DNA of 64,000 bases from Rhizophagus irregularis (GCF_026210795.1 NC_089432.1:3472001-3536000), one strand, 5' to 3'. Positions 11,711-47,034 are shown, counted from the stretch's first letter. The notes: a model not told the origin generated them from the sequence alone. Made by a program: numbers and translations.

Positions 11711-14470
11711 TTGTATTTATTTATTTATTTTATGTGAAGCCAGACAGACTATTAAACAGGACATATACCATACGTGAGTTATCCTACTTCTAGCTATCAT
11801 CCATCACCAGGATGGACCCAAACTTCTTTAAGACCGTTGGAACCAGCCTGATCCCCCTCCACTACCGAAAGAAGAACAGGAACGACAATTAAAAAGTGAA
11901 CTAATTAACCCGTATTTTTCTTTCAACCAACCAGGGTTGCCACCTGTAAATACTGTCATAGGTGGAATAATTCACACTATTTGTAGTTGTTAATATCTGT
12001 CCTAAAACGAACTAATGTTTCAAAATATGAAATACAAAATATAGAAACTAAACTATTTCAAATACGAAATTGAAAAATTAAATCTATATTAGTGGGTAAG
12101 AAGTCTTCTTCTTTGGTATCCCTAAAGTTGAAAATACAAACTTTTTTAGTAGGAGGTATAAGATCTATAATTATTATAATGTGTGTGTCTGGCGCGATGC
12201 TTTTTCGGGTGACGTTCTACTATTTTTGTATCATCGGAGGTATCACCAAGGTCATCTTTTACGTATTGGACATCATTCGGTCAAATAATAGCGCGGTACA
12301 GTTTGAAGGGGTAGTGTTCATCCCTGTATTTTTTACCAAAATCGGTTATCAAATTGTTGAGACGCTTCGATGCAACTGCACGTCGATCGGGAGATTTCTT
12401 GGTGTTATGTCCATATGCGTAATTGCGAATTTTTATCATGCGATCATGAAAATCATTAGTCATCCGCGTAAAAAAATCCATGGCATTCGTACGCCTGAGA
12501 TAATGTTTTGTAGAAGTGTTATGATCCCTGATGTCTTTAATGACATTTTCCCTCTCGTTAAGACGATCATGAGCTTTAATCTTGTCAATACGGTCATCAT
12601 TTAGACCTAACATATACGCATCTCTTAAGGATAATTGGATTGTAGAATCTTGTAATAGTAATATAGCATCTATGTATTCTGATGCACCTTTACCATAATG
12701 TTCATCGATGAGATTTGCGATGTACCAATCCCTATAGGAATGTTCAATTGTATCATCATTACTGCCATTATCGGCTGAAAAATCATCATCTTCATCTATA
12801 TGTTGATTCATAGATGCATTCCTGATTAACGGAGAAATGTGAGAAGGTAGAATCTTATCCTCGTGTAAGCGTAAAAGAACGCGATTCTGATCATATGGAA
12901 AACGAAATAAAGGGACAGTTGCATAGCGTTTGAATAATGCCATGTTAAATTTCAAATGAGGGAGTCTTGTTAGGATCTTTGGTGCTGATGAAAGAGGAAC
13001 TTCCTTTGATTCGCAAGTTTAATCTTATGGCGAAGTTTGAGAGCTGGCCCTATTCTGGGTTTTCTATTGTTGAAGATACGTCTACAAGATCGATCAAAAT
13101 GAGTCTTTTACTTTGCAGCAGTTCGAGAATTAGAACTTAATAATTTGGAGAAGTTTTTGTATATCTTAGTGTACATAGGACCGATGGCCTTATTAGGCGG
13201 AGAGATTGCGTTGAGGTCGTGCACTTCATAACGCGTTGTATAAGAAATGCCCAATCGATTTGAAAAAATCTGTTGCCTCGAGTTATTGTTGTATTTTTCA
13301 TAAATAATGTTGGCGTGAAAACTTTTATGATGAATAATATTGTTCGTAGAGGTTGGTATAACTTTTTCCTCCATAGGTAAGTTTATATCTTGAGAAATAC
13401 GCGAATGGTGTTGAATGCAAGCGTGTCTATTAAAATTTTTAACAAAAGGACAAGGTATACGGCATGGTGTTGGTTTTTGATGAGGAAACTTCTTTGTAGG
13501 TAGTTGATTACAAGCTACATAGATACCAAAATGAAATCTGTATCATTTGTAAGAGAAGTTAAAAAAAGTTTTAGTAATATTATTGCTGCACGTGATTTTT
13601 CTCTCACGTGATGTTATTAGATTAATTCTATCCAACAATTTGAGTCGTATCATGTTAAAAAATTTGTTCTGAATACGCCGAGGAATAACTCGTTGATGTA
13701 GAAAAAAGTGCGTGAGGCATTTCGATATTTGAAATCTGTGATTAGGTAATTTACTTGTGAAATAATACCGAATTGGGGTTGATAACATATGATTATCATT
13801 TGTGTATATTTTAAGATGAATTTCATTGGTGTCGGGTATATGATCGATAACCTCAAAAAAGAAACTTTTTGAACGCCTGAATTCATAGATCTTGTTGTAA
13901 CCTGCTTTAGACGTAGCGGTCATGTGAAATTTTTCGAAAGAGACCAAAAAAGAGAAGGTCGAAAGTATTGGTTGAGGTGAAGGAGCTTTGATTATGATAG
14001 TCTGAAGTACGTTATCCTGTGGTTTAATATTCATCCCTAAAACTTTATCAGTAGCAAGTCCGCCTTCAGGAATGTTTCTTCTGTTATCGGAATGTCTGTC
14101 CAACTGCGGATAAGGTTTCGGAAGTTCATATGAGGCCAAGGAAAAGTTGGTGTTCTTGTTGTTTAAAGAAGACATAGTCCCTTAATATTGGGATAAGGTG
14201 AGAAACAAAAACCTTGTATAACGACCAAGGCGCCCTACAGGGCCTCTTTCCCTTTGGAGTTTTCGTAGAAAACTATAAAGATAACTGAACGCAATTTTAC
14301 TGCGGAATACTAACAATTTGGAAAAAAGGGGAAAGAGTTTTTTTTTTTTCACATTATTTGTATTACCATTTGTACTACTATTGTATACAAAAATTACTAT
14401 TTTTGTAACAAAGAAAATTCGTAAGCAGCAGCTGATCATCATAAAAACAAATCTAACCCGAAATGGTTAA
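11711..14470 (-). mobile_element. possible non-LTR retroelement derivative (ORF1-like gene, GC-richer 3' region, (TAAA)n tail)
   Basis: One long decayed intronless ORF. A GC-richer 3' region at 11735-11960 ends in TAAATAAATAAATA on the minus strand. No RT motifs seen. Confidence 0.35.
12281..14175 (-). pseudogene. ~630-codon basic protein pseudogene of unknown function
   Basis: ORFs 13543-14175 and 13108-13374 are one frame broken by TGA (13545-13543, FSYK*YRFHFGIY) and TAA (13110-13108, AAK*KTHF). A frameshift near 12980 leads into ORF 12281-12955. Confidence 0.75.
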
Positions 14471-14484
14471 AATGAAAAATGCGA

Positions 14485-17347
14485 GGGTGATCATCAAAGG
14501 ATATAACCTTATTATTTACGTCACAAGTGCATAGGATATATCCTTTGGTGGGCAGCCCATGGGCATTATTATATAAGTCACGTGACTTATAATTTTAACG
14601 TTAATATTTTAATGCTAATTTCAGCACATACTTATAATACCTATAATATCTGGCACACAATCCCAGAGAAACATGCGTTGGTTTAGCGCATGTTTCCCAG
14701 AGTAACATGTGGTAACTCTGGCGCATGTTCCCAGTAACATGTGATGACTCTGGCGCATGTTCCCTACTGTAACATGCGATGATTCTGGCACATGTTCCCT
14801 ACTGTAACATGCGATGACTCTGGCGCATGTTCCCTATTGTAACATGCGATGACTCTGGCGTATGTTCCCTACTGTAACATGCGATTGGTTTGAACTTGGC
14901 GTTATGTAACATGCGGCGACTGGCGCATATTCCCTACTGTAACATACGGTGACTCGGCGCATGTTCCCTACTATAACATGCGGTGACTCTGGCGCATGTT
15001 TTCTACTGTAACATGCAGTGACTCTGGCGCATGTTTCCTACTGTAACATGCGGTGACTCTGGCGCATGTTTCCTACTGTAACATGCGATGACTCTTGCGC
15101 ATGTTCCCTACTGTAACATGCGATGACTCTGGCGCATATAACATGCGGTGACTCTGGCGCATGTTTCCTACTGTAACATGCGGTGACTCTGATGCATGTT
15201 CCCTATAGTAACATGTGGTGACTCTAGTTTATTTTTCTTACTGTAACATGCAGTGATTTTAGTACATATTCTTATATCTAAAATACCAAATATTTAATAC
15301 TAAGCATTACTAGAATCAATGCATATTATGTTATAGAATATTGCATATTATGTTTTAGAAATATATATAACTTTACTAAAAATGGCCATTTTTTTGAAAT
15401 AGTATTTAAGGTTTATTTTTAGTAATTTTAGCAATAAAATAATAAAACAAAAAAAAATAAACAAAAAAAAATAAACAAAAAAAAATAAACAAAAAAAAAT
15501 AAACAAAAAAAAAATAAACAAAAAAAAAAATAAACAAAAAAAAAATAAACAAAAAAAAAAATAAACAAAAAAAAAATAAACAAAAAAAAAAAAAATAATA
15601 AAATAACAAAAAACAACAAAAAATAAAAAATAACAAATGATTTGCATAATCATGTTGTATATTTTAAAGTTTATAAATAATTAATTTTATGATCATGTAA
15701 ATCACTTTACTGATACAAATATAATAATCATTTGTTTTTTTTCATTCCTATATATTCAATTTTTTCTTTTTTTTTTATTTGATTTTATTTTTTTTATTTG
15801 ATTTTATTTTTTTTATTGATTTTATTTTTTTTTGTTAATTTTATTTTTTTTTTTGTTAATTTTATTTTTTTTTTGTTAACTTTATTTTTTTTTATTAATT
15901 TTTTATTGTTTTATTATTTTTTTGCTAAAATTACTAAAATAAACTTTAAATACTATTTCAAAAAAAATATATAACAATTTAATATGTATTTTCTACCATA
16001 ATATGCAGTAATCATAGCACATATTCCAGATACTGTATATTATTTATTAATATAATATGCAGTAATTTAGCATACATTCCAATGTAAATTTATAATGTAT
16101 ATACAACAATTCTTGCATATATTCCTGATGCATAATATGCAATATTCTATAATATAATGCAGTGATTCTGGTAATATTCAGTTTAAATATTTGATGTTTT
16201 AAACATAAGAATATGTATCAGAAATCAGAATCATTACAGTACCAGAGTTACCACATGTTATGGTAAGAAACATGCACCAGAATTACCGCATGTTACAGTA
16301 GGAAATATGCACCAAAGTCATTGCATGTTACAGAAATAAACATGGAGAGAATTTGTGTGCTAGAATTATCACATATTGCTTTAGTAATATATTCCAGAAT
16401 TAAGATCTTTATAAAATTATATGTCACGTAACTTATATAGTAATGCCCATGGGATGCCCACCAAAGGATATAACCTCTGGAAAATGTGTGGTAGGGACTA
16501 GCGCATGTTACTCTGGGAAACATGCGGCAAGGACAAGCGCATGTTACTCTGGGAAACATGCGGCGGGACTAGCGCATGTTACTCTGGGAAACATGCGGCA
16601 AGGACTAGCGCATGTTACTCTGGGAAACATGCGGCAAGGACTAGCGCATGTTACTCTGGGAAACATGCGGCAAGGACTAGCGCATGTTACTCTTAGAAAC
16701 ATGCGGCAAGGACTAGCGCATGTTACTCTTGGAAACATGCGGCAAGGACTAGCGCATGTTACTCTGGGAAACATGCGGCGGGACTAGCGCATGTTACTCT
16801 GGGAAACATGCGGCAAGGACTAGCGCATGTTACTCTGGGAAACATGCGGCAAGGACTAGCGCATGTTACTCTGGGAAACATGCGGCAAGGACTAGCGCAT
16901 GTTACTCTTAGAAACATACGGCAAGGACTAGCGCATGTTACTCTTGGAAACATGCGGCAAGGACTAGCGCATGTTACTCTGGGAAACATGCGGCGGGACT
17001 AGCGCATGTTACTCTGGGAAACATGCGGCAAGGACTAGCGCATGTTACTCTGGGAAACATGCGGCAAGGACTAGCGCATGTTACTCTGGGAAACATGCGG
17101 CAAGGACTAGCGCATGTTACTCTGGGAAATATGCGCCAGACTAATGCATGTTTCTCTGGAAATGTGCGCCAGACGTTATGGGCATTATAGGTATGTGCTG
17201 AAATTAGCATTAAAATATTAACGTTAAAATTAAAAGTCACGTGACTTATATAGTAATGCCCATGGGCCGCCCACCAAAGGATATAACCTATTCACTTGTG
17301 ACGTAAATAATAAGGTTATATCCTTTGATGATCACCCGAGTGGGGTG
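14485..17347. mobile_element. non-autonomous foldback DNA transposon, copy 2 (8-bp TSD AAATGCGA; left TIR lacks its terminal 10 bp)
   Basis: Colinear with 7879-11055. TSD at 14477-14484 and 17348-17355. Tandem arrays at ~14690-15250 and ~16495-17135. Confidence 0.95.
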
Positions 17348-18429
17348 AAATGCGAAGTAAAATTATTTTCGGTAATGTAGATCATATAATTTTTTTTTTT
17401 GTATTTTCAAAAAAATAAATAGCAATAAACCTATAATAGAAAATCATTGCATATATCAAAAATAAATTAGTTTGGAATAAACATCAACCTATAATAGAAA
17501 ATCAAACATTTTAATTAATATATTTTAATTAATGAAAATCAAGGTTACAGATTATAGTTTGCACATACACTAAGCTTTTTTTGTCTTTACGCTAGGAAGA
17601 TAAATAATAGTATTGTATAATTGGTTTAAATGAACCTTGTCTAGTAAATATGATAAATGAAAGAAATGTAAGGTATTTCATACTATTATCCGTATTGAGA
17701 AGATAATATTATGAAGATGATCAAACATTGAAGTATCGAAATTTTATTGTATATACGTACAGTAAATCAATAAATAATCTTGAAAAGTTTTATTATGCAA
17801 TTTTAAATTGAGTAAATTTTAAAACAAAAAAAAAAATTATTTATCTTTTATCTTAGTAAATGATATTTATTTAATTATGTATTAAGAGATATATTTTTTG
17901 AATAGAGACCATATTTTCCACATTACCTTTGCACTAATCTTATTAATCTTAAAAAAATTGAGAATGAATAAAGTGTGAAAATTATGGTCAAGTAGTAAAT
18001 AGCTCTTATATTAACAAATCTATTTCTATGATAAAAATATTAATAAATGTTTTTAAAAAGGACAATCTAAGTATCTAACGGATTACAGGTTTCATGAAGA
18101 TAAATACATCATATTTTGAATATTGTATTTTTAAGTTCGAAAATTATTATTTATTTTTTATGTATTAAAAAAATAAATTCCATTTTCCTTTGTTGCTCTT
18201 ACTACTATTTTAATATTTATCTCCTCTAATCTATTTAAATATTATTAACTAAATTAAATCTATACTATTATCATTTAATATTTATATTTGTTTCTAATTG
18301 AGTAAGAGGGAGGTTAGTTGTTATGTTAGCTGACATTTCTGTTTTCTTATTGTTATGGTAGTATGTAAAAAAAAATTAAGATTTGAAAACACACAAGTGC
18401 ATGTGTACCAAGCCTATAATTATAAAGCA

Positions 18430-25399: not shown

Positions 25400-27053
25400 T
25401 AATATTACCAATGACAAAAGCTGTTTTGTTGGCTGTAATTAAAAGAATCAAAAGAGAACGATCAAACTTCCCAAGCTGGTTCGGTTATTAATATCGGTTG
25501 GTGCAACTTGAGTTTCTGAATTTTTAAATTTGATAATAAAATACCTTTCTTTGAAATCGACGAATAATTGTGCTCCATGTGCATATAGAAAATTAGTCCC
25601 AACTCCAAAGGATATTCAGATGAAGCGATCATGTGATACTTTTACCATGGTCATTCTTTTATTAAGTCTCACATGATGGATTCTTCTGGGTCAGTAAATA
25701 AACAGTTTATACGAATTCAATACCTCATCGCATATAATGATTTCCTTCGACTATAACATTATTTTCCATAGTATAATTCAGTGACAAGTCTACTATCCTC
25801 CAAGTTATCATCTAATAAGTAGTCATGATTTTTTTCCAACTGCTTATTTTTGATTACTAATGCTAATTTTTTTTCTTTTTTAAATTTGCTTTCTTCTTTT
25901 TTTAGTATTGCTTGACCTAATTTTTTTTTAAAAAAAATCACTCCCACTGCGAATAGTGATAGCTTAAGTTTATTTTTATACTAACAAATCCCCAGTTAAC
26001 GACATTCTTAAGTAGGTGTAATTCTGTTTGGTTTACAGGAATTTGTGTTGTCATAATTTTGCGGATGATCCATACCTCTGGCGCCTCTAGTGTAATTAAC
26101 GCGGCTTCTAATCGAAATCCTAGCAAACAAATCATTTTCCTTACAAATATTAGGAACACCTAAGTTGACCACGGAATCGTGGACTTATCCTCATCTTCCT
26201 CCTCTTCCATCGTCTTAATGCTCTCGGTAATACTTTTAAGTATTTGTCAGAGAGTAAGTACTTTATCCATATTTCCTTATCTTTTTTGCAGTTAGATGGA
26301 ATGTGAGTAAAGAGTACAGTATTCAAATATTTCGTAATAAAATTCTTATATCAATTACCTTGAAATTGGATTCCTGCAATACCAGCTGTCAAATATTCTA
26401 TTCCTAATAAGATGAAAGAACCTAAGAAATTTGTGAATTTGAAGATCAAGACAAGACGCGTTGACTAATTTATTATGACTCACTTACTGGTGGCATCAGG
26501 TTGCTCTATAAAAACACGAATGCGTTCTTTGGGCGGGTTTGACTATAAGAAGCAGGAAAGAAAAGCACGAGATTATGTAAGTATTTGGTATTATTGACAA
26601 ATAATGACAAAAGACGAAAAAAATATAAATTTTTTTATAACTCACCGGTGAGAACGGGCTATTCAAGCAAATGATTACATATTCATTTATTATATAAGAC
26701 ATTATTAGGGAAAAGTAGAAAAAAATCATGTAAATTTAGAATATGATGAAGGTAGTGGATATGGGAAATATTGTGGTCTTGGTCACGATCGTGATGGAGA
26801 AGGATGACAAGACGGAAATTGTGGTGATAGTGGTAGTGCATAATACTCTAACAATGTTTCCTTTGATGCTTCTTCAATGAAGTTAAATTTGTTTTCATCA
26901 TTTCGTCAATAGGAATGGCCTTGATCGATGTTGACTTTCCATAGAGTGAGTTGGAATAACCTCTTTTAGGTCATCGATATCATTTTTGTTTCCTATAGCA
27001 ACTTTAAAAGCAGAACTATTTCCACGAATAAGACACCAAAGTCTGATAAGCAT
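25400..27053 (-). pseudogene. Crinkler (CRN) family pseudogene
   Basis: ATG at 27053: MLIRLWCLIRGNSSAFKVAIGNKNDIDDLKEVI, then after a frameshift QLTLWKVNIDQ. Downstream is heavily decayed and the 3' limit is approximate. 26120-26905 has an inverted paralog at ~43090-44003. Confidence 0.65.
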
Positions 27054-30430: not shown

Positions 30431-31015
30431 TTGCTAGTGAAGATCCGGGATTACTTTAATATAAAACAAGCTGGGCATTTTTTTGCTCAAGTTTCTTTAC
30501 CCTACGTGAAAAGTGAAACGAGACAGTACGAATCACAAATCATAGCTCTCTCAATAAATAATCTCAAATCAGCACCTGGAACTCTTGCTACAGATGTCCA
30601 AGTTCCGAAAGTGGATCCGTGTTTGTTGTATGGAGAAGAACTACTTTCGAATTCGTCTGATCCGATCAAAGAATTTACCCTAGCTTCATGTGGTCACATC
30701 TTTCACCAGAAGTGCCTCGAGAAAAATCTTGTGAGTGGTGAAGTGATATGTCCGAATAAGGAGTGTAACAAAGCTATAGAAACTTTTCTCTCTCCGGATC
30801 TTTTTAAGGAGGGAAAAGGAGGTGGGTTACAAAAGTCTACAAAAGCATCCGCGGATGAAACGAACATCACTACTACAGAAATGGTTAATACAACTGCTTC
30901 CACTGACGCTACAGCCATACAAATAGATTCGGAAAATCAACTTCCATGGATGACAATAATGATCCATCGGAACCGGGGAGTCATGCGGAACGAAATCTAC
31001 CAAAACTTCTCTTGA
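30431..31015 (+). pseudogene. RING-H2 finger protein (degenerate)
   Basis: DPCLLYGEE...LASCGHIFHQKCLE...CPNKEC. The second Cys position is Tyr (TAT at 30629-30631). No ATG start; C-terminus appears frameshifted. Confidence 0.7.
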
Positions 31016-31286: not shown

Positions 31287-31970
31287 ATGGTAGATATTAA
31301 TTTACTTTACCGTCTCTTGACGCAGATGCTAAAGAATCTCCAATTAATGTAATTAATGGCAACACCAGTGATCATATTGATGACCTCAAAGAAAAAATTT
31401 ACGAAGAAGTTAAAAAGAAACATAATGATTTCTTAGACATTGAAGCAGAAGACTTAAGGTTATGGAAGGTAGAAATCAATAATAGCAGTGATGATGAATT
31501 TTCAAGTCTTGTTCTGAAAAACGATAATACGAAAAATATAACTAAGCTTCGGGGAACAATTAGAGAATTTTGGGATGATGATGAAAAGCGTCCAAAAGTA
31601 GGATGTACTCATATTATTGTTGATTCGCTACGTTTAGTCGAGAGACGAAAAATGGATAACCATATTCAGGATCAAGGCGAAGGATTGAACTTATTAATTG
31701 GTCAGTTACGAGAAATGGGGCTACAAAATCCGGGTAGGCCAGATATTTAGATTTTACATTATTTAATAAATTCAGACATTTTTTCACGACGCAACATGAT
31801 AAACTTGCAACTGATAATTTAATAGAACATCAAGATTTAGATAATCACAAAATCTTCGAAAAAACTTTACGATTTTGTTGTGCTCTTTTAACAAATGGAC
31901 AAGCATGGTTGCAAGAGATAGTTATTAGGTGATGTCACTAATGGTAGATCGATTAAAGAGGGAACGAGAG
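31287..31970 (+). pseudogene. Crinkler (CRN) N-terminal domain pseudogene
   Basis: MVDINLLY, then after a frameshift ...IDDLKEKIY...AEDLRLWKVEI...CTHIIVD..., followed by an intron donor at ~31734. Not in the ORF track. Confidence 0.75.
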
Positions 31971-32870
31971 TTAAAATTACATAATTAATTTAGTTTTTCT
32001 TTAGTTAATGTATAGTATTTAGATAGATCGGTTAGTTATAGAGGATAATATAATTTATTTATATTATTTTCTAGGTGTTTGTGTAATTATGTAATATTTT
32101 TGTTTACGGGGTATCCCGATTTTTATTGTATGCAAAGTTTTAAAATTATATTATTCTAATTAAAAAGCTAGCTACAAATTTGCTGTACACAAAGCAGATA
32201 GCCACTAGCCAATAGCATATGGCCTAGATCACAATTTTGAATGATTTTAAAATAGAATAAAAATAAAAAAATTTTTTATTTTTTGTGATCGTAAAATAAC
32301 AGCTCATTAATTAAGCATCAATATTCCTAAATAATAAACAATTTTATTGCGCTGCGAGATTTTTTAAATTAGTCGTTGGGGCTTATCAATTACCTTTTTT
32401 CGGATTTAATTTCTTTTTTTTTCTGACACGTCATAAATCCATTAGTTAAAAAAAATTTTTTTTTTTTCTCACATTTTTGCATTACAAATTTTTTTTAACT
32501 ATAAAATAAGACCCAATTTCGCAAGGTGGGAGGGTGGGCGCTATTATTTCACCCAAAGTATTTCCTTAAACGTATGAGTAGATCGTGACCAAAAAAGAGT
32601 ATTTATTGCAAGTGTTTTAGTAGTTTAAAAATCTTTGGATGGGAACTTCACGGAATACATACATATGCGCGGATCTTAACTCTAACCCCAATTTTTAAGA
32701 CGTAACCCCAAATGACGGTCATGTTAAATTGGATATGGTAACACTACATCAAACCATTTTATTGGTCGATCTAATCTGTAACACAAATTTCATGCAAAAA
32801 AAAAAAATTCACGAAACTTTGTAAAATAATTACGCGGTTTAAAAAATTATTCCTAGCTTCTAATTTGCAA

Positions 32871-35138
32871 ATGTCTGACACACAAGAAATTCATAATTAC
32901 CCCTTTGACTCAATTATTAATTTTAAAAAATCAGGACATAGTTTTTCATATAAAATTATAAAAGAAGGAACGTATCCTAATAAATCTTTATTAGCGTACA
33001 CTCTTCCTCCTAATAAATATCGAATCCCTGATGATTATATGGTAGAAACAACTTGGGGTAGAAGTAATAATCGATGTGTTGTTCAGTGTTTTATTAATTA
33101 CATTGATAATAAACCAGTTTTTCAAATCTGGTTTGGAAAGTGTTTTGAACATGTAGTATCTTCAGTTAGAAGTGCGACGGATGTTACAAATTTATTTCAT
33201 AAAGTTTGTACACTAAATTATTTTTTTTTAGTTTTTCTATTTTTTTCTATTTATAAATTAACTTTAAAATATTTATTTCAGGAATATACATCTTTAAAAA
33301 AAACAAAAACATCAGGAATTTATTTGTTTGGTCTTCATCTCAAAACATTAGAAATGGCAAGAGAAGGCAAGCGACGTGCACATATATTAAAACCAATTGA
33401 CCAATGTGGAAATTCCACCCTTACAAAACGTGCTATGAGTATTGGAAAACATATATTAGCTGAATTCAACGAAAAAACACAGAAGCTATATAATTTGGAA
33501 GACGTACCAGCATTGGAAAGTATATGTTATTCTGTTAATAAAAAACATACTTTTAATATCAGTTACGAGAATGAAGATAAAACTAAAAAAAAACAAAAAC
33601 TTGAATCAATAGTTAGAGCATTAGATGAAGGCAATATTCCAAGAGATTCTTATAGACGTCTATGTGCTATAGAATATAACCTACCACGTGAAGGAGAAAT
33701 ATCTAAAGAACGTATAAATATAAATGAAATAATGGTCCAGCTCATACCAATAACAATAGTAGATATAAATACTAAAAGTCAAGTGGATGAATCCGAAGGA
33801 GTAGATATAGATGATGAATCTATAACACAAGAAGTAATTAATGCAGTTGGTAAAGGTGGCTATAGAAATATTAATAATATATTGTATTATTTGGTTCCTA
33901 ACCTTGTTCAAAAAGGCATCTTGAATCCAGATCAGCCCATAATTAATCTTCGAATCTCTGGAGATGGGTGAAACGTAGGAAGGAAAGTAAAACATGTAAT
34001 CATCACAGTGGCTATTTTAGATGATAAAAATACTTCACACAAACCAGATCATCATTATACGACCATACTCTATCCTGGATGTGAAGATTACAACTCTCTA
34101 TCAAATGCAATGACCCAATTCTGCCATGATCTAAGAAATTTAAAAGAAGGACTGGTAATTGATAATGTAAAGTGGAATTTTCAATTTTATTTTTCGTCTG
34201 ACTGGAAGTTCTTAGCAATCTGTTTGGGTTTTAATAGCGCTCATAGTAAAAATTTCTGCCCTTGGTGTACAATTGATAAATCACAACAAGGAGATCTATC
34301 AAAAGAATGGAAGATTAATAAAGAAATAGATAAGTTAGTTGAACAAAATAATTACTATAAAGGACATATAAGAAAACCACTTTTTGATATGATACCTCTT
34401 AATCACTGGGTTCCTGATGAATTGCACATTATGCTTAGAATTACTGATCGTTTATGGAGTCTTGTGATAGCAGAATTAACAGAATATGGTTTGTTTAATG
34501 ATACTGCACGAAAGATAATTGTAGAGGAAATGAAAAGAATTAAAGTTAAGTTTCAATTCTGGCAAATTCAAGAATCTAAAACTTGGAGCTACACATCATT
34601 AATGGGAAATGATAAGATCAAAGTATTACAATTCTTTGATTTATCAAAAATTCTTTTAAGATAACGCGCTAATATGATACGAAATCTATGGAATAAATTT
34701 TATGAACTCTACATAAAAATGAAGGACCAAAAAACAAATGCTGAAGAATTTCAAAATGATGCAAAGAATTGGCTTACTTTATTCTTAACGCCATCTGAAG
34801 GTATTCCAAATACTCAAGGATTCAAAAAAGGTCTTTATAAACCTAATGATATGACACCTTACATTCATGTGTTAGTCCATCACGTTTCTGAATTTATGAC
34901 AATTCATCAAAAATGGGGATTAAAGTCATTTTCATGTAGTGCAGTGGAAAAAAAAAATCATCAGCAAGTTTCTTATTTTTTTCGTAAAACAATGAAAGAT
35001 GGAGGTAGAAAATCCAAGTCATCAGCAATTATTGAGATCTTAGAACATGAAAATCGATCTCTTTTTTACAATTACCATAATGTTTCCTTAAACTCTCAAA
35101 AACCTCATAAAATTCATATTAAAGCTGAAAATAATTAG
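32871..35138 (+). pseudogene. RAG1/Transib/Chapaev-like DDE transposase (~729 codons, intron 33204-33281, two nonsense codons)
   Basis: Three track ORFs share one frame, separated only by TGA at 33969-33971 and TAA at 34662-34664. Motifs ISGDG, SSDWKF-..-FCPWC, PDELH, TPYIHVLVHHV and SAVEKKN match the order and spacing of RAG1 core motifs. Confidence 0.85.
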
Positions 35139-35194
35139 AATGAAAATGCTTAATATACTTTGATACTGTTTTTTTCGTGTTCAAATAATCTATT

Positions 35195-35888
35195 TTATTC
35201 AATCATAGCCTGGCTATTGTAAAAATGAAAATAAATGTGACCTGCGTGAGTGAAATTACCATTAAAATCAGTATTTTTTTGTTTTTTCCATTCTACTACT
35301 AATTGACCACGTATGCATTTTGGTTTGCGTAATTTTTTAATTGTTTCATAAGTTAATGCAGCTGTAATAGGATTTTCGTCTCCATCTTCAATATTATTGT
35401 CATCATCACAAAGTACAACATAAGTACATTGCCGTTGATCGTAAAATTTAGTCTCCCAACCTTTCATCTCTAGAATATTTGCTAATATTTGATTTGATGA
35501 ACCTTTACGAAATATACACTTGTAAATACCCTTTGTAGCAGAGTAGTAATGTATATAGTTTTTAAATACTGCATAAAACTGACTTTCAGTAGCGGGAATA
35601 GAAACTGTTTGTTTTCCTAATTGCCTATATCCTTTTGGTAATCTTTTGCGAATATAGTGAACTAAGATGGCTTTAAATTGGTGTACGGTATTATCAGGTA
35701 AAGCATCAATATCTGGATGTAAAGAGTTGTATTTTATAATAGTATTTAAATGTCTAGTCAATCCCCCCTTTTTTAAACAGTTTCCCGCATATATTACATT
35801 CAAATTTTGAATCATTAGTTGTTAGAGTTGTTATTTGAGTTGTTGTTGAAGGTGGAAGAGCACCGGTAGAAACTACAGCTTGATTCAT
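35195..35888 (-). pseudogene. zinc-finger-containing partner gene convergent with the transposase
   Basis: ATG at 35888: MNQAVV...SKFECNICGKLF, a frameshift in the A/G run at ~35763-35775, then KGGLTRHLNTIIKY and a ~190-aa domain. Upstream intron at ~35899-36097. Confidence 0.7.
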
Positions 35889-37856
35889 ATTACCATACCT
35901 AAAATATAAAAAAAAACACTTTATTAATTAAAAATATTAAACACTGTTGTAAACTTTATTCAAATTAATATGCGAAATTTACAAATAACAAAAATTTTAC
36001 AAGCAAACTACTTTTGAATTACTAAATGTAGTTTAAATAAAGTTAAAAAATATTTTTTTGTATATAGAAATAGAATAGTACACTCAACATAATTTACCTT
36101 TGAAGGAGATTGGTTTCGTAGGGAGGAGATTGGTTTGACGCGATAGTTACTATTAAATTTTTTTTTTTAGGGTTTTTCGGTGAGAGAGTCTAACGCTTGA
36201 CATATGATTGTTGTGTAACATTTACGATGGTCACATGCAATTTTAATAGTAATTTGGGGCCTTAATTTTGGTCCAATTCCGATAATAAGCCGATATGATA
36301 TAAAAATAAATAACTAATTACTTAAATAACATTTGCGTTACAAGACTTGTTTTCGGATCATACAAATAGAGATCAGGCCAGTAAAAAAATTCAAGTCCCT
36401 CAGAAACATAATAAAAAACATAAACAGGTCAGCACGTGATGATGTGACAAAAACATCACAGGGGTGGTGTGGTAAGATAATTCCTTGTTTTCTATCCTAC
36501 GATAATTAACCAATAAAGTATGTTCGTTAAGATTTAATATACTATAACGATTGTTACCAGTACTAGTATTTAATAACACATCAGAAACTGTCACAGTAAA
36601 AGTGCTGTAGCTGCCCTAAAACATAATTAATTTTTATGAGTATGAAGACAACCAGAAATCATAATCTGCAGTTGCGCTCCTTAATGACATGCGATAACTG
36701 ATAATAAATATAATAGAATTAAAATAATCACTATAAAAACAGATTATAAATAATAATACCAATGATCGCATCAGATAATTTTACCGCAGGTCAGTCCATG
36801 ACTCTGTGTGACAGGCTTACGTAAGTGCAAACTTATAAATGGATTTTCCCCGTTTTTTGACTTTTTTTTTTATTAAAAAAAATTTTTTTTTTATAATTGC
36901 ACTAAGTTACTGACTGTTAAAGTTCTTAATAGATATTAAAATTTTCCTTATTCCTTAATTTCACATTTTAAACACTTTTAAAGTGAGTATTTGTTACGAA
37001 ACCAATACAAATTCTGTAACAAGATTTCTTTGGAAAAGATTTTCTAGCTTCCTTCAGATAAAAAATATCTTTCTTTGGATTTTTGAAACACAAAATTATT
37101 CTTATTCTTGAAATTTCATTAACTTAGATACACTTTCATTTTTGGAATATAAATTAGATACTAGCTCAAATTTTGATACTTAGAGATACAATAAAATCAG
37201 TTATGATGGAAGCAACAGATCCTTCAGAAGAAATCAAAAAAATTTTGCTCAAGTCAAAGGTGATGTTGCTAAAGTCAAAGCTAGCATTAGTAAACAAATT
37301 CAATGCTTGGTAATCAATTTGAGATTTTTGTATGATATGAAATTGCAAAAGAGTTCAGTCAACATTATGCAGAAAGTTTTGACCTGTTTGACCTATATGG
37401 AGTAGTACAACTTGCTTTTACAAAAGAGAGACTTCCAGGTGAAAGTCGACAATATTATACCCAAGCTTATCTATTAGAACGTCATGTTCACAACTTGACC
37501 AACAAAATTTATGTAAGTAGTAGCTATAGCTAGATGGATCAGATTAATGAAAGCTAATATTTTTGTATATTTTTATAAGGAATGATACTCTCTTAAAACA
37601 TATAAAGAAAGCAGAGCAAATTCTTCAAAATGTATTTTACAAGAAAGATAATGAAATTAACTTGGAAATCCTACCTCAACTTCATAAAGTTAAAACTATT
37701 TTGAATGAATATGATGAACCATTGGAGAAAGCTACAGAGGATAACTTTGTTGATCTTGATTCAATCTTATTTGTGCCTAATTATCAAGGCAATTACAAAT
37801 TTCAACAACACTGGTTGATGAAATGGGTAGGTAACATATTTCAAGTTTCTACTATT

Positions 37857-40572
37857 CATCAGTAAATTTTTTGGGGTGCAGATCCTTAGAAATTCCAAAA
37901 ATCCCGTAATTAGTAAAGATCCCTAAGAATCCTTCCCCACCAGCGAGGATTCCCTATCATAAAATTTTTATAGAATCCTTAAGGATCCATTAAGGAATCC
38001 TTAAGGATATTTATTGTTATATTTATTTATATATTTATCGATAGATTTATTGTTAATTTATTTATTTATAGATTTATTAATGTATTTATTAATTTTATTT
38101 ATTTGTCAATATATTATTACATATTTTTTCAAATTAATAAAATATAAAGAAAATTCAAAATAAAAATTAAAGATAAATAAAACATAGCTTCTTAATATAC
38201 ACTTTCTACCGAAAAACATTAAATGATAGATTTAGCAGCAAAACTTATCATTTTTAAATTCTTATTCTCCCAATACCCTAGATAACCTAAAATAAAGAAC
38301 GTTATTTAACTTTTATAAAAAAAAAGAAAATAAACAAGATGTTTTTTAATGAAACTTATCATTTTTAAATTATTAACTTTTCTATCAATACCTAGACAAC
38401 CTACAAAAAAAACAAGTAAAAAAAATATTAATAAATATTTTTTTTTTAAAAAGGAGTTTCTAAAAAGACTCCAAATCTTAGCCAAAGTTTCAAGCAGTTT
38501 AAACTAAATTGTAAATTTTGCGGCTACAAAGTTCATATTTAGTAATGTAAAGTACATTCAGTCTAAAAAAACGTGAAAAAAAGAAAAATAAATGAATATT
38601 TAATAATGTTTATTAAAACAAAAAAAAAGTGAAAACAATCTTTTTTTTACTCACCCAATTTCATTATATTATCATATTTCACATCAATAAAAATGGTGTG
38701 AAAACAGATTCTATCCATATACTTCAATATCTGGATGCTGCTTTATCATAATATCCAGACTCCAGAGAGTATCAAAAAACCACCTAAAAAAGAAAATAGA
38801 ACGAACATTAAGTAATATTTGTTAGAATAAAAAAAAAATTTTCAAACTAAATAAAGAAAAATAACTGATTACTTTTTTACTTGTAAATTTTTTCTTACTT
38901 TATTGGTTCCATATCTATAGAGACTCAGAAAAACTGCTTAAAAAAGGAAAGAAAATGAATTAGTAATGTTCGTTAAATTAAATAAAAAAAAAAATCTTTT
39001 TTTACTTACCGATATTCTAAGTCTAGAGAGACTTGAAAAACGGCCTAAAAAAAGAGGATTTCACATCCAGAAAATATTCAAAATCCGCCTAAAAAAAAGA
39101 AAATAAACGAACAGTTAGTAATGTTTATTTATATAAAGAAAAACTCGAAAAGAATGAAAAAATATTATTTTCTTACCTACCAGTCCCACGTCCGGAGGCT
39201 CAAAAAAAATGCCTAAAAAAAAAGAAAAAACAAACAGTTAATAATGTTTATTAAAATAAAAAAATAAAAATTTTTTTTCTATTTTACTTGCCAAATGTCC
39301 CGTTCAAATACCCAAAAACTCAACCGTCTAAAAAAAAAGAGAACAGTTTATTTAGTAAAGTTCTTTAATAAAAGGAAATATCACTTTTTTACTTACCGAA
39401 ATCCACATTCAAATACCCAAAAAAAGGATGCCTAAAAAAAAAGGAAATAAAATGGAACGTTAGTTAACGTTTTGTTAAAATAAAAAAAAAATTAAAAAGT
39501 TCGAGCTTACCATAATGCAGCGTGCAGGAAAATCTAAAAGAACCTAAAAAAAAGAAACACTAGTTAATGTTTTGTTAAAATAAAAAAAAATTTTACCAGT
39601 TACTGCAAGAAAATCTAAAAGAACTGCTTAAAAAAAAGAAACGAAATATTAGAGATTGTTCATTAAAAGACGGAAGAAACAGATAAAAAAAAACAAAAAC
39701 TTAAACTTACCAGAATATCGCCTCCAAAGAAATTCGAAAGAGCTGTCTAAAAAAAAATAAAGAAAATAATTTAGAAACTGCTTATTAGAAGAAATAGTTA
39801 AATCTAAAAAAAATAAAAATAAAATCTTACCAGAATCTGACTGCCGAGTGCTGACTAAAAAAAAATAGCAAAATGTTACTCAACGTTTCATTATAGATTT
39901 TGTAGAGAGAGAAAAAAAATGGGTGAAGATAAAGAATGGGGAAAGAAAGGCAAAAAGGAAGGGAAGGGAGATAAGGACGAAGGAAAGTTTAATTAAAAAT
40001 TTAGACAATGATGGAATAATTAAAAAAAAAATCAGCTGATAAGATTATCAGCTGGTAAGATTATCACATGATACACGTGATACAATATTTTATTTTTTCT
40101 GGTTCTTGTCTATATTATAAAAATAAAATAAAAATTCTTGGATTTCTTAAAGATTTTTATTTAGAAATCTTTAAAAATCAATCCATAGCATATGCTCTTT
40201 GTCTCCCGGCTGGTCAGCCATAGTGTTTGAAGTCATAGCTCTAGTTAATACCAATTCATAGAATTTTTAAGAATCTTTATAATTTATCTAAGAATTTTTA
40301 AGGATTCTATAAATTGCCAGATCCTTAAGGATTCTAAGATAATTTAAGGAATCCTTAAGTATACATGCTGCCCAAATTATTTTGGAATGTCATAATTATA
40401 ATTTAAGATGCTGTAATTCATTCAGTTTATATATAATTTACTATGTAAAGTGCCAAAATAATTTGGGATGCCATAATTGAATTTGGGATTTTACTTATAA
40501 TTACGGCAGTCCAAAATAATTTGAGTGGTATGTATATCCTTAAGGATCTATGGTCCAAAAAATTTACTGATG
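37857..40572. mobile_element. non-autonomous TIR element (2716 bp, 2-bp TSD TT; CMC/EnSpm-like) carrying a micro-exon array
   Basis: 18-bp TIR CATCAGTAAATTTTTTGG...CCAAAAAATTTACTGATG. The empty site ctactattaattgtc occurs in sister tandem units. ATCCTTAAGGAT-type palindromic subterminal repeats. Confidence 0.9.
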
Positions 40573-40915
40573 TTAATTGTCTACTTTTTAACTTATATAA
40601 TTTTATTAATCCTTTATGTTTATAGTTTAATGTATTTTCAATTAACAAAACATATCTTAAATGATGAAAGGAGCAGTGAATATCAGTATCAAAGCTGATT
40701 TGTGAATTTACTATGTGAAGACATGTTTCTTGATTTAAACAATACTATCTAATTACCAATATAAGACTGATAGTTTTTAAAATAACATTTTTAGTATGAC
40801 AGATTAGATGGTATAAAATGTTAAAGAAAGAAAGGAACCAATGGCACATATTGATGGTATATTAAATGATGAAAACAAATTAAAAATTTCAGGATTAACT
40901 GTTAAATATTTTTAT

Positions 40916-41255: not shown

Positions 41256-43089
41256 TATTTTTATAAGGAATAATACTCTCTTAAAACATATAAAGAAAGC
41301 AGAGCAAATTCTTCAAAATGTATATTACAAGAAAGATAACGAAATTAGCTTGGAAGCCCTACCTCAACTTAATAAAATTAAGACTATTTTGAATAAATAT
41401 GATGAATCATTGGAGAAACTGAAGCTACAAAGGATAACTTTGTTGATCTTGATTCAATCTTATTTGTGCCTAGTTATCAAGGCAATTACAAATTTCAACA
41501 ACACTGGTTGACGAAATGGGTAGGTAACATATTTTAAGTTCCTACTATTAATTGTCTACTTTTTAACTTATATGATTTTATTAATTCTTTATATTTATAG
41601 TTTAACATATTTTCAATTAACAAAACATGTCTTAAATGATGAAGGGAGTAGTGAATATCAGTATCAAAGCTGATTTGTAAATTTACTATATGAAGACATA
41701 TTTCTTGATTTAAATAATACTACTATCTGATTACCAATGTAAGACTGATAGTTTTTAAAATAACATTTTTAGTATGACAGATTAGATGGTATAAAATGTT
41801 AAAGAAAAAAAGAAACCGATGGTATATATTGATGGTATATTAAATAATAAAAACAAATTAAAAATTTCAGGATTAACTGTTAAATATTTTTATAAGGAAT
41901 AATACTCTCTTAAAACATATAAAGAAAGCAGAGCAAATTCTTCAAAATGTATATTACAAGAAAGATAACGAAATTAACTTGGAAGCCCTACCTCAACTTA
42001 ATAAAGTTAAGACTATTTTAAATAAATATGATGAACTATTGGAGAAAGCTACAAAGGATAACTTTGTTGATCTTGATTCAATCTTATTTATGCCTAGTTA
42101 TCAAGGCAATTACAAATTTCAACAACACTGGTTGATGAAATGGGTAGGTAACATATTTCAAGTTCCTACTATTAATTGTCTACTTTTTAACTTATATGAT
42201 TTTATTAATTCTTTATATTTATAGTTTAACATGTTTTCAATTAACAAAACATGTCTTAAATGATGAAGGGAGTAGTGAATATCAGTATCAAAGCTGATTT
42301 GTAAATTTGCTATATGAAGACATATTTCTTGATTTAAACAATACTACTATCTGATTACCAATGTAAGACTGATAGTTTTTAAAATAACATTTTTAGTATG
42401 ACAGATTAGATGGTATAAAATGTTAAAAAAAAAAAGAAACTGATGGTATATATTGATGGTATATTAAATAATAAAAACAAATTAAAAATTTCAGGATTAA
42501 CTGTTAAATATTTTTATAAGGAATAATACTCTCTTAAAACATATAAAGAAAGCAGAGCAAATTCTTCAAAATGTATATTACAAGAAAGATAACGAAATTA
42601 GCTTGGAAGCCCTACCTCAACTTCATAAAGTTAAGACTATTTTGAATAAATATGATGAACCATTGGAGAAATAAAGCTACAAAGTATAACTTTGTTGATC
42701 TTGATTCAATCTTATTTGTGCCTAGTTATCAAGGCAATTACAAATTTCAACAACACTGGTTGACGAAATGGGTAGGTAACATATTTCAAGTTCCTACTAT
42801 TAATTGTTTACTTTTTAACTTATATGATTTTATTAATCCTTTATATTTATAGTTTTACATGTTTTCAATTAACAAAACATGTCTTAAATGATAAAGGGAG
42901 CAGTGAATATCAGTATCAAAGCTGATTTGTGAATTTGCTATGTGAAGACATGTTTTTTGATTTAAACAATACTATCTGATTACCAATGTAAGACTGATAG
43001 TTTTTAAAATAACATTTTTAGTATGACAGATTAGATGGTATAAAATGTTAAAAAAAGAAAGGAACCGATGGCACATATTGATAGTATAT

Positions 43090-44003
43090 TAAATGATGAA
43101 AACAAATTAAAAATTTCAGGATTAACTGTTGAAGAAGCATCGAAGGAACAAGACCACAATATTTCCCATATCCACCACCTTCATCATATTCTAAATCTAC
43201 ATGATTTTTTTCTGCTTTTTCCTGTAATCATTTGCTTGAATAGCCTGTTCTTACCGGTGAGTTATAACAAAATTTATATTTTTCTCATCTTTTGTCATTA
43301 TTTGCCAATAATACCAAATACTTACATAATTTCTTTCTTGCTTCTTATAGTCAAACCTGCCTAAAAAACACATTTGCGTTATTATAGAGCAACCTGATGC
43401 CACCAGTAAGTGGGTCATAATAAATTAGTCAATGTAAGTGAATGCGTCTTGATTTCTTAGGTTCTTTCATCTTATTAGGAATAGAAAATTTGACAGCTGG
43501 TATTGCAGGAATCCAATTTCAAGGTAATTGATTGTTTTGGCTATATAAGAATTTTATTACGAAATATTTAAATACTCTTTACTCACATTCCATCTAATTG
43601 CAAAAAAAATAAGGAAATATGGATGCACTATAATGATGAATACGTCCCTATTAAACAAAGTACTTACGCTCTGACAAATACTTAAAAGTATTGTCAAGAG
43701 CATTAAGACAGTGGAAGAGGAGGAAGATGAGGATAAGGCCATGATTCTGTGGGCAACACATGTCAAATGATCAAAAATAGGCAAAAAAAATGGCGCAAAT
43801 CGCATAAACTATTCGCAAATTTGTATAAACTATTTACAAATAGTATAGGTTAATTCGTAAATAGCCAAAAACAGCCAAGAATAGCCAAGAATAGCCAAGA
43901 ATAGCCACTGCTTTTCGCGCCATTTTTTTTGCCGATTTTTAGCATTTCGACCTGTGCAACTTAGATATTCCTAATATTTGCAAGGAAGATGATTTGTTTG
44001 CTA
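43090..44003 (+). repeat. inverted paralog of the CRN pseudogene segment at 26120-26905
   Basis: Reverse-complement similarity throughout, e.g. GACAGCTGGTATTGCAGGAATCCAATTTCAAGGTAATTG and GAGGAGGAAGATGAGGATAAG. Confidence 0.85.
43757..43956. mobile_element. CAC-ended MITE, 200 bp, 3-bp TSD CAA (CMC superfamily: CACTA/Chapaev3-like)
   Basis: ~40-bp TIR CACATGTCAAATG..GGCAAAAAAAATGGCGC. CAA at 43754-43756 and 43957-43959. Empty site in the paralog at ~26165. Confidence 0.88.
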
Positions 44004-44007
44004 TGTT

Positions 44008-47000
44008 ATTGGTAATAAAATAAAAAACACCATTATTTGAAATATTTCTTTATCTATTACATTAACAATTAATAAGCAATTCTTAAAATTTGTTAACTGT
44101 TAATTTTAGCTAGTTATTACAATTGTTAAAAGCTATAATAAAGTTTAATTAATTAATTAAAGTTAAATAACTTTTATATACAATGCGCATTTGTCCTATT
44201 TGAATTTAATTAAAGAAATCTTAATGATTAATAATCTAATAATCTTTGGATGTTATTAATACATTTGTGAAAATTAAAAATTGAATAATCAAAATAATAA
44301 TCATAGATGAGAAAATAAATAAAAATTTTATTTTTAATTTATAGTTTAATATAAATATATTGAACAAAACATTAATATTTAGCCAAGTCTTTAAAAAATT
44401 TGTTGTCATCTGGTCACTAGCAGCAAGGGGAAAAGGAAGGGGAAAGAGCGAGGGAATAAGAGAAAGGGAAAGGGAAAAGGAAAGAAGAAAAACAAGAGAA
44501 GAACGAGGACATCACCCACCTATACACAACCCACACTCCCAACCTACATAGTACATACCTAAAAGAAAATATAAAAAAAGGGAGCCAACGAAAAGATCTA
44601 ATAAAAAGAAGATCCAGTAAAGTGCGATCTGGTCAGCTGATTATCCAGTCACCTGAGCCGGTTACACACGGATATGCCGATCATTTCCTTTTTGGGTGAT
44701 ACCCACCTACAAAAATTATTTTTCTAAACATGGAAATGCCACTTTTGGAAATTTGTGTAACTTTCAACTCAAAAAAAGAAAATGATCGACAAGATCACGT
44801 GACTTGACCGAATCAAAAAATAAAAGAAAATCTAAAGAAAAGAGAAGAGAAGAGAAGACAGAGAGTCCAGAGACACTTAAAAAAAGGTATTGGGTTTATA
44901 TTTAGATTTGCCACCAAATTTTTTTACAGCTACATTATTTTATAATTATTATTAATAAAAATATATTACTCAGATCTAGTGATTTAACAAGTTAAAACTA
45001 TTTCAACAACGTTGTTAATTATAATTCTGTTGAAACCAATCAGTTAAGTCAGCATCATTATAAACAATATTCAATTAACTTTCCATAAAATTCTTTCATC
45101 TTTTTTAAAAAAAAAAGGTATAAATAGCTTACTCCGACACACTCTTCTGCCTACCCAATTTGCAAATAAAGCGTAATTTGTATTAAAGGTTTCTATGTTA
45201 AAGGTTTCATTATATAAAGTTGTGTTGATATGTTGTCGTAAATAAGAGTTCAAGAATTGCGATTCAAATATCCGCAGAAAGGTATAAGATGAAAAAAATA
45301 CTAAATGAAAAATCAAGTAAACATATCTCCTAAGTAAACATACCTCTTTTTAAGTTCATTTCATTTAAACTTTTGAACATAGATCTCTCACACACGTGAT
45401 CCATAATGACAAAAATTACGACTTTTTCCAGAAACAGGTTTGAATTGTTTTGTTAAAAAATGTTTGAAGTTTTTTATAGTTGGTAAAATACCAGATTAAT
45501 TAGTTAAAAAACTAGAAGTAATGTAAACTTTTTCAAATGCATTTCATAATAAATACATTTGGTAAAATTAATGTTGACTGAATACAATTTGAAAATTAAA
45601 ATACAATTTGGTTTTAAATTGTGAAAAAAAAATCCTATATACTTTAAATTTCATAATATTTATACTATTTTAAAATTTGTTATAATGTTTAAAACATGAA
45701 CTGATGAACATAATAACATTCTACATAATTAAAGTATTTGTAACAAAATAAACACAGCTGTTTTGTTAATTATTTTTGAGCATCTTCTTAATTCCACGTT
45801 AATAGAAGTGTTGGTACACGCTGGTCTTGCCATGTAAGAGAAAGTTATGCAGCACCCTCATTATAATTTAACAATAATTTGGTATCCTGAGATGACGCAT
45901 GTGTTATCAGTAAAGAATCATTAAAAAAATGTATTTGATTTTTTTCTAGGAATAATGTGAGTGCAAAAGTCCGGTAATTATTTTTTAAAATAAATGATTT
46001 TTAATTTTCTTTAGAAAATGAAAATGAGAACAAACCAGTTACTAAAAAAAAATAAAATCATACGTGAAAATGAATAAATACTTGAAAATATCGTCTAAAA
46101 AATGTAGTCTTCATGATAAAAATTATGGGATAACTTGATGACTTGGTGGTCAATTTATAGTGATCATATAATCTTTTTTTTTAGAGCATTAAATTTTTAA
46201 GAAAAATAAGATTATGGATATTTACTTAATAAGATTGTTGAAATTATAATAAGAGGGCAAAAAATGGGTTGATTATAATTCACATAATCACACAATTCGT
46301 GTTTACGGTCATAAAAAAATTTAGATATATTTATTCATATATTCATAGAATAGGAGTATAAAAGGAAAAGAAAATTTTCTTTGAACAGAATTCCAAAAAA
46401 AGGACACAGAAAGGAAGGACTTAGACGATCAAATCCAATCTGACTCATAAATCATGATCCCGAAAATTCAAAATTCTCAACATTCATTATTCTGACACTT
46501 AATAATATTTTCATAAATAAAAATAAAAGGTATCCAGACACCAAAGTCTATTTCACCGAAATCAATTTTGCCAAAGCCATTTCGCTAAAAAGATATTTCA
46601 GGAAAATAAAGTGATTTATTAATTAATATCAGTTACTTGAATGTTAAAGTAATGATATTCTGAAAAAAAAAACTCTAAAAATAATTTAATTTTTATATTC
46701 ATTGCGCGATTTATTAAAATATTAACCGCTACAAAAAAAAAATTTTTATCTTTATATCTTTATATGCAATTGTTATTAAAATTCCACATATTTCTAATCG
46801 ACTAAACAATAGATTTTGCGAAGTATGGTTGATAAATATTAATAAAAATATAATTTTTAAAAATATCATATTACAGGTACGCCTATTTTAACGAACACAC
46901 TTCGGGTCATTAGTAAATTTTTTCTAATTGTCGTTATAATGTGATTTATTATGTTTTATATAATGATATAAAGGAATTCAAAAAATGGTATGTCATTATA

Positions 47001-47034
47001 CAATAATATGTTATTATAACGAGATGTCATTATA
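44008..47034 (+). repeat. left arm of ~3-kb inverted repeat (partner 59896-62962)
   Basis: Colinear reverse-complement similarity along its whole length. Ends inside a truncated pogo-like MITE (46874-47034). Confidence 0.92.

Follow-up and report, generated by a model that had tools for sequence, protein, structure and literature searches.

A stop-inactivated copy of a multi-copy Rhizophagus irregularis element with a predicted RAG1/Transib-type transposase

The window, which is the whole 64,000-nucleotide stretch of DNA analyzed here, contains on its plus strand a copy of a Rhizophagus irregularis transposase gene (32871 to 35138). Three stop-to-stop open reading frames that share one frame (32775 to 33971, 33972 to 34664, and 34665 to 35138) are divided by a premature TGA (33969 to 33971) and a premature TAA (34662 to 34664), both on the plus strand, which are Arg and Gln, respectively, in intact copies. 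The spliced transposase frame is 729 codons. Exon 1 (32871 to 33203, plus strand) encodes residues 1 to 111, with the start of a predicted FYR-like domain, and exon 2 (33282 to 35138, plus strand) encodes NBD-like helices, the RNase H core, the ZnC2 and ZnH2 residues, and a C-terminal domain. The 78-nt intron between them (33204 to 33281, plus strand) has GT..AG ends and is in frame without a stop codon. It is spliced out of the annotated 729-aa proteins, and its GT and AG are both retained in the diverged locus L002. No joint across this sense intron is present in the RNA run examined (X17). The preliminary description, made from the sequence alone, had proposed three ORFs in one frame split by two C-to-T stops, a 78-bp intron, and a product of ~729 aa, and all of these are borne out. 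Runs X3, X8, X9, X2, X11, and X17 have C at both stop positions, and run X1 has the window's own letters at both. The T and C forms are both present at position 33969 in X8, X9, and X11, so the TGA is not private to the window copy.

A separate observation concerns the type of mutation in this element. Within 32662 to 36297, DNA run X2, X8, or X11 differs from the window copy by a substitution at 11 positions. Every one is C-to-T or G-to-A, with the plus strand accounting for 10 (p 0.004) and CpG sites for 4 (p 0.03). This bias suggests either methyl-C deamination or a strand-biased mutational burst.

The transposase gene lies within a multi-copy element of 3,636 bp (32662 to 36297) with CATAT...ATATG ends. 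Contigs in X3 and X9 collapse over the gene beginning at 32662, loose contig ends are found at 32660/32661 and at 36297 (those behind 36297 in X2 and X11), and the diverged loci L003 and L004 align from exactly 32662 and have the start CATATGTGC in common. The left end (32662 to 32736, plus strand), 5'-CATATGCGCGG..., is part of an imperfect inverted repeat and has a subterminal CCCCAAAT block. The right end (36223 to 36297, minus strand), 5'-CATATCGGC..., is the best ungapped match to the left end in a scan of 35900 to 36900, with identity at 20 of 40 bases and at 8 of the first 12. Read inward, the ends are CATATG and CATATC. These ends were not detected by a generic repeat finder. A candidate right end at 36206 (CATATG) was rejected, since contigs run through it. 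The sequence CATATGTGCACA at 25120 (minus strand) matches the L004 left end over its initial 12 bases and has no transposase match nearby; it is either a relic or a chance occurrence.

The flanks differ among copies, while the sharp ends stay common to them. Two contigs join a left-like flank to a right flank with no element between; these flanks differ slightly from the window's, which indicates that the contigs represent related repeats and not this locus. The window copy is bordered by ATA on the left (32659 to 32661, plus strand) and on the right (36298 to 36300), a possible 3-bp target duplication (chance 0.026 for 3 bases), and two unpaired flanks in X11 have a 4-bp match, TAAA/TAAA. The related empty repeat implies a duplication of 1 bp, or of 3 bp with one AT slip. 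The 5-base flanks, ACATA/ATATA, agree at 4 of 5 positions and are the worst fit to the empty repeat, needing two more changes. The window's left flank ends in TA and its right flank starts with AT; the right flanks of other copies start with TT, TA, or AT.

Several other features are present in the window. Inverted blocks at 26106 to 26784 and 43146 to 44018 (82 to 99% identity, 16 to 18 kb apart) flank the element. A tandem repeat of about 625 bp has three copies at 41256 to 43133 (95 to 96% identity) and pieces at 37567 to 37859 and 40573 to 40915. An inverted repeat of about 3 kb (44014 to 47034 and 59897 to 62958, 81 to 87% identity in blocks) encloses about 13 kb, and either an inverted duplication or one large element could account for it. 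The stretch from 7875 to 17351 is made up of direct and inverted repeats nested in one another, together with short-period arrays and two long palindromes (9651 to 9929 and 15327 to 16023). An ORF at 31301 to 31750 (plus strand) encodes a Crinkler N-terminal domain (Pfam E 2.3e-9), to which an ORF at 57186 to 57779 (minus strand) appears similar by eye; an ORF at 30431 to 31015 (plus strand) has a RING-like zinc finger; and one of two ORFs at 56067 to 57185 (minus strand) has a GDSGS motif, seen by eye, as in trypsin-like serine proteases.

The element ends, the second gene, and the antisense RNA considered next were absent from the preliminary description. ORF2 (35195 to 35888, minus strand), the only other gene within the element ends, is convergent to the transposase and encodes a protein of about 231 aa with one C2H2-like finger. 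It is frameshifted near 35768 in the window copy and is intact elsewhere (231 aa). In the ORF2 protein P0307, the finger is below the Pfam cut-off and its second His is missing in the alignment. ORF2 accessions adjoin transposase accessions at 4 of 4 loci of isolate A1, the same adjacency is found in two subfamilies that are about 75% identical, which brings the subfamilies showing it to three, and L001 carries the transposase and ORF2 together. There are 53 ORF2 relatives, the named ones being from Rhizophagus, Dentiscutata, and Cetraspora, and the range of ORF2 may be narrower than that of the transposase. The ORF2 structure model is mixed helix/strand (pLDDT 66.6), and fold searches with it reached at best a Foldseek E of 0.066 and a Z of 3.7; this absence of a clear match is not evidence of a new fold. 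We ruled out a RAG2-like six-bladed kelch propeller based on the length of ORF2 and its mixed helix/strand model.

The evidence for RNA antisense to the transposase comes from one of six listed RNA runs (X17), the contigs of which are unstranded and represent a diverged copy. RNA coverage in X17 includes ORF2 and transposase exon 2, and one contig spans ORF2 into the 3' end of the transposase. All 7 splice joints in this run have CT..AC ends, which are minus-strand GT..AG (chance per joint, 0.005 to 0.018); none of the 7 is compatible with plus-strand splicing. The joints define minus-strand introns at 33433 to 33507, 33583 to 33684, 33820 to 33902, 33958 to 34044, and 34296 to 34395 and one with alternative forms (34504 to 34777 or 34686 to 34777). 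We infer a single spliced transcript (33290 to 35898, minus strand) that is derived from ORF2 and runs over the transposase. Besides ORF2, its exons contain no ATG-started ORF longer than 42 aa. Four diverged loci, which are not independent of one another, retain the antisense splice dinucleotides in 28 of 39 cases, versus a background of 253 of 494. A passage of PMC11075540 gives R. irregularis about 40 AGO-like genes, which makes an RNAi outcome plausible for this RNA.

A homolog search with residues 240 to 755 as the query returned 210 proteins, 120 of which were listed. The best match is an intact 729-aa R. irregularis protein, P0002 (PKY53560.1), with 98% identity, which agrees with the earlier proposal that decay is light and that intact copies may exist elsewhere. 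Other named genera among the 120 of 210 proteins listed are Rhizophagus, Diversispora, Gigaspora, Scutellospora, Racocetra, and Entrophospora. For a second protein, P0122, the two stops and S570L are the sole differences from the window protein. The P0122 sequence is identical under four accessions, which are four loci of isolate A1, and this identity among loci suggests that the element was active recently. Comparison with the stop-free locus L002 gave a dN/dS of 0.17 (613 codons), and comparison with three loci that hold stops gave about 0.3.

With a family profile, 4,065 representatives reach E 0.001 and 557 reach 1e-30. Most of these records are unnamed; the named distant relatives are from scallops, a sea urchin, a sea cucumber, two cnidarians, and Lithocolla globosa, a nucleariid protist. 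Relatives are found across Glomeromycota and in marine animals. Scans of viral contigs (315 pattern matches) and of prokaryote genomes (103 pattern matches) gave 0 confirmed relatives each, and a metagenome scan gave 4 related loci, 0 of 4 with both element ends. For residue counts we used a family set of 72, made up of 35 close members (the homolog-search matches) and 37 distant relatives. In a tree of these 72 rows, the 35 close members, a grouping that is a search label and not a checked taxonomy, form one side of a branch (100/98). The tree holds family members alone, with no RAG1, Transib, Chapaev, EnSpm, Plavaka, or ESTA references, and the 26 proteins of a final homolog search include no RAG1, Transib, or Chapaev reference.

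The preliminary description had called this locus a recombinase gene, and one could suppose that mycorrhizal fungi have domesticated it as a host recombinase gene, of which the window has a pseudogenized copy, since it shows purifying selection and is widely present in Glomeromycota. However, the sequence is multi-copy, with sharp inverted ends, varied flanks, a related repeat that is uninterrupted, and many broken copies. The domesticated-gene reading is largely refuted and is, in our estimation, very improbable; we conclude that the gene is the transposase of a transposon and not a host recombinase.

The motifs of mouse RAG1 are, in order, SCDG (D600), GYDEK (D708), C727/C730, DALH, TNYFHKTLAH (H937/H942), and EGNESGN (E962). 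RAG1-type motifs in this order and spacing had been proposed for the window protein, and every one of them was found. The second Asp (D418) and the ZnC2 residues C437/C440 (34200 to 34268, plus strand) are present in 72/72, 72/72, and 71/72 members, with 19 residues from the Asp to the CxxC. The ZnH2 residues H640/H645, which form an H-x4-H, and the catalytic Glu, E667, which is 22 residues farther on (34866 to 34949, plus strand), are present in 70/72, 69/72, and 67/72 members. In the profile alignment, D418 and the CxxC are in register with GYDEK and CTLC of RAG1, H640/H645 and E667 are in register with TNYFHKTLAH and EGNESGN, and DELH is in register with its RAG1 counterpart. D339, in ISGDG (33963 to 33965, plus strand), is D in 70/72 members and lies outside the profile alignments; it is the inferred first catalytic Asp and counterpart of RAG1 D600. 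The spacing from the second Asp to the Glu is 249, with a median of 250 in the 67 of 72 members in which it was measured.

A profile built from 34 family sequences matches RAG1 at E 2.5e-9 and RAG1L at E 4.4e-6, a narrower close-family profile matches RAG1L and RAG1 at E 0.04 only, and HzTransib was not matched in family profile searches at E 1 or E 10. The read-through protein, searched as a single sequence against Pfam and PDB, gave nothing useful. The structure model of P0002 (pLDDT 86.9, pTM 0.71) was compared with known structures, and the Foldseek E values are 2.9e-13 for RAG1, 8.4e-9 for BbRAG1L, 4.3e-8 for HzTransib, and 7.3e-4 for Hermes. Based on the profile and Foldseek values for RAG1, we conclude that the likeness is not due to chance. 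A wide search with the same model by VIA gave RAG1 a Z of 23.9 (rmsd 3.6, 443 aligned), followed by BbRAG1L (22.4), apo HzTransib (15.1), the P element (12.4), ISCth4 (9.7), and Hermes (8.7). In this structural check against the RAG1 core and Transib, which the preliminary description had advised, RAG1, RAG1L, and Transib come ahead of P and hAT; the unrelated DDE families that might have claimed the protein (hAT, P, and IS256-type ISCth4) all rank well below RAG1. A repeat comparison gave a Z of 25.8 for RAG1 and 22.6 for the HzTransib hairpin complex (rmsd 3.9, 413 aligned). With RAG1 at 24 to 26 and HzTransib at 22.6, structure alone barely separates RAG1 from Transib, and the structural identity to RAG1 is 12 to 14%. 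Based on these comparisons, the transposase is predicted to have a RAG1/Transib catalytic fold with a DDE triad.

Pfam RAG1 is found in 5/72 members (best E 2.4e-6), DUF1280 in 3/72 (weak, best E 9.2e-4), and DUF1258 in 1/72. P0002 itself matches none of Pfam RAG1, DUF1280, Transposase_21, or Plavaka, and no Transposase_21 or Plavaka domain was found for the 72 members among the 25 of 96 families listed. In an Atlas ranking of predicted proteins, RAG1 clusters score 0.95 and Transposase_21 clusters 0.87; DUF1280 marks 16% of the top Atlas cluster and 12 to 16% across two near clusters.

The N-terminal part of the transposase and its C-terminal tail were considered separately. Residues 9 to 142 of the whole-protein model match the FYR domain 2wzo (Z 11.8, rmsd 3.6, 122 aligned), and the N terminus is predicted, from the model and without Pfam support, to be a FYR fold. 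This part is covered by 22 of 82 aligned members. No FYRN-transposase fusion was found in the literature, as judged by title or start of abstract. Pattern searches found a CTT* tail (Cx2Cx3GHx4C) in 0/35 close members, N-terminal zinc fingers and RING in 0 of the same 35, and, with shortened motifs taken from part of PMC1131882, Chapa/RING in 0/35 close and 1/37 distant members. A CTT*-like tail, with G or S preceding the His, is present in 12/37 distant relatives. CTT* has been assigned to RAG1L and subgroup I Transib (PMC9435367), and an excerpt of PMC7204232 reports that the CTT* tail of BbRAG1L binds the terminal repeat.

The zinc and catalytic motifs place the protein in a broad group. 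The CMCT zinc residues C437/C440 and H640/H645 are in 69 to 72 of 72 members, and the CMCT 5'-CA..TG-3' termini are present as CATAT at 32662 and ATATG at 36297. CMCT elements also duplicate 2 to 5 bp of target; the flank matches here are ATA/ATA in the window and TAAA/TAAA in X11, and the empty repeat implies 1 bp, or 3 bp with one AT slip. One alternative is that the element belongs on the EnSpm/Plavaka/ESTA side of CMCT and matches RAG1 for no other reason than that the available CMCT structures are those of RAG and Transib. A second ORF, as found here, is frequent in EnSpm elements. According to the parts of Kojima 2025 (PMC12730594) consulted, these motifs define the whole CMCT clade and are common to all its lineages, ESTA transposases also match RAG1, and, in supplement Fig. 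S2, PlavakaB has CATCA..TGATG ends and short duplications; our element resembles ESTA/Plavaka in its fungal host, its CMCT motifs, its CA..TG ends, and, for ESTA, its RAG1 similarity. In contrast, the element is not flanked by TA at both ends as the TA target duplication of ESTA would require, P0002 has no Plavaka or Transposase_21 Pfam match, the ranking that places the protein nearer RAG1 (0.95 versus 0.87) is of predicted-protein clusters as well, and the CTT*-like tails and D-E spacing point to RAG1L. We consider this alternative improbable.

We conclude, with a probability of roughly 0.72, that a multi-copy 3.6-kb element of R. irregularis, likely a DNA transposon of the cut-and-paste type, is present at this locus as a copy inactivated by stops, and that its transposase, which is predicted to have a RAG1/Transib fold, likely represents an unnamed lineage that falls, within the CMCT clade, on the side of RAG1, Transib, and Chapaev. 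The D-E spacing, the CTT*-like tails, Pfam RAG1 in 5/72 members, and the Atlas scores point to the RAG1 side. The CAT ends and the absence of RAG2L, of Chapa or RING, and of TA flanks speak against the named families. The earlier assignment to the RAG1/Transib/Chapaev clade is partly supported: this is a RAG1/Transib-type DDE enzyme in a fungus, but several defining features of Transib, RAG1L, and Chapaev are absent. The window copy is dead, and the transposon itself is probably still active.

RAG and Transib enzymes pair the ends, nick, form hairpins on the donor flanks, and insert elsewhere. By analogy, an intact transposase would bind and pair the CATAT ends and, through D339/D418/E667 with two metal ions, would make nicks and seal the flanking DNA into hairpins. 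Joining of the ends to another site would then leave a short duplication there, and the insertion domain would be held by the zinc site. The ORF2 protein is probably an accessory DNA-binding or regulatory factor, perhaps replacing the CTT* end-binding tail, and the FYR-like head might steer the enzyme on chromatin. The long spliced 3' RNA of ORF2 would probably damp the transposase by antisense pairing or transcriptional interference. The window copy would be mobile only with transposase supplied by an intact copy.

A bolder possibility, which we advance only tentatively and think doubtful, is that the family is a sister lineage, not yet described, to RAG1L together with subgroup I Transib and has members in mycorrhizal fungi, a protist, cnidarians, molluscs, and echinoderms. 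In the fungal branch, the tail-to-tail two-gene plan of ProtoRAG would have been rebuilt independently, an unrelated zinc-finger partner would have taken the place of the CTT* tail, a FYR fold like that of chromatin proteins would have been gained, and a spliced antisense brake of its own would have been acquired; this branch would still be mobile.

Work on RAG origins has so far been based on few transposon families. If this family is large, with RAG1-like spacing throughout, CTT* in animals, and numerous intact copies in fungi, it would be a new outgroup, and its transposase could be expressed and assayed with no need for RAG2. Part of the repeat content of R. irregularis that is now unclassified would also receive a name, and recent activity is relevant for this fungus, for which genetic tools are few.

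RAG1-like and Transib elements have already been published for fungi, and the label "Transib" has been applied in R. irregularis itself. Muszewska 2017, in the part of PMC5751038 consulted, reported Transib as absent from fungi by Pfam RAG1. Tao 2022 described one chytrid RAG1L and 20 fungal Transib-like proteins (PMC9435367), with no Rhizophagus in the part of the supplement examined. For R. irregularis, Oliveira and Corradi 2024 list families under the names Transib and CMC-Chapaev (PMC11075540); these match our element in species and clade label, and in the sections and table rows consulted the names are by HMM assignment, without detail on sequence, ends, ORF2, or structure. One of these two families may be this element. 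We found no published description of the family, ORF2, the FYR-like head, or the antisense RNA in the literature, Repbase being outside the scope of the search.

The DUF1280 matches and the short flank matches point to Chapaev, and a part of PMC3985635 has DUF1280 corresponding to Chapaev and grouping with RAG1. The element could be a divergent Chapaev subgroup that has lost the Chapa/RING head, perhaps the "CMC-Chapaev" listed for R. irregularis. It has the CMCT motifs of Chapaev/Chapaev3, weak DUF1280 matches (3/72, best E 9.2e-4, and 12 to 16% of two near Atlas clusters), and 3-bp and 4-bp flank matches that would fit the 3- to 4-bp duplication described in a section of PMC4079192. However, that same section calls the CAC..GTG ends of Chapaev "invariable," and the ends here are CAT..ATG; the Chapa/RING motif is absent in 35/35 close members; Pfam RAG1 (5/72, E 2.4e-6) scores higher than DUF1280; and 12/37 distant relatives have a CTT*-like tail. 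A Chapaev identity is unlikely.

Slightly less likely again is a true subgroup I Transib or RAG1L that has lost RAG2L and CTT* in the fungal branch, which may be the "Transib" listed for R. irregularis. The element is like Transib (HzTransib) in its fold, its catalytic and zinc motifs, and its cut-and-paste anatomy; its D-E spacing is RAG1-like, distant relatives have CTT*, for the 5-bp target duplication of Transib, the window's flanks agree at 4/5 bases, and, according to part of bioRxiv 10.64898/2026.08.26.747230, terminal features and duplication length are labile within Transib. In contrast to the Transib spacing of 206 to 214 (RAG1, 253) given in a portion of PMC1131882, which predates subgroup I, its spacing is 249. 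It also has a second ORF and no CAC heptamer-like end, P0002 lacks a Pfam RAG1 match, HzTransib is unmatched by the profiles, and the structural identity to RAG1 is 12 to 14%, compared with an average identity of 26% for RAG1L and Transib (PMC9435367).

For the likely unnamed lineage, one near comparison is with the RAG1 core and the ProtoRAG RAG1L (Branchiostoma belcheri, PDB 6b40). Unlike these, the element has no RING or N-terminal zinc fingers, a predicted FYR-like head, no CTT* in its fungal branch, CAT and not CAC ends, an identity of 12 to 14%, and as its partner a 231-aa zinc-finger protein and not a kelch-PHD RAG2L. Like them, it has the fold over about 440 to 490 residues (Z 22 to 26), the DDE and C2H2 zinc residues in register, and a D-E spacing of about 250, and, as in ProtoRAG, two convergent genes lie between inverted ends and a CTT*-like tail is present in 12/37 distant relatives.
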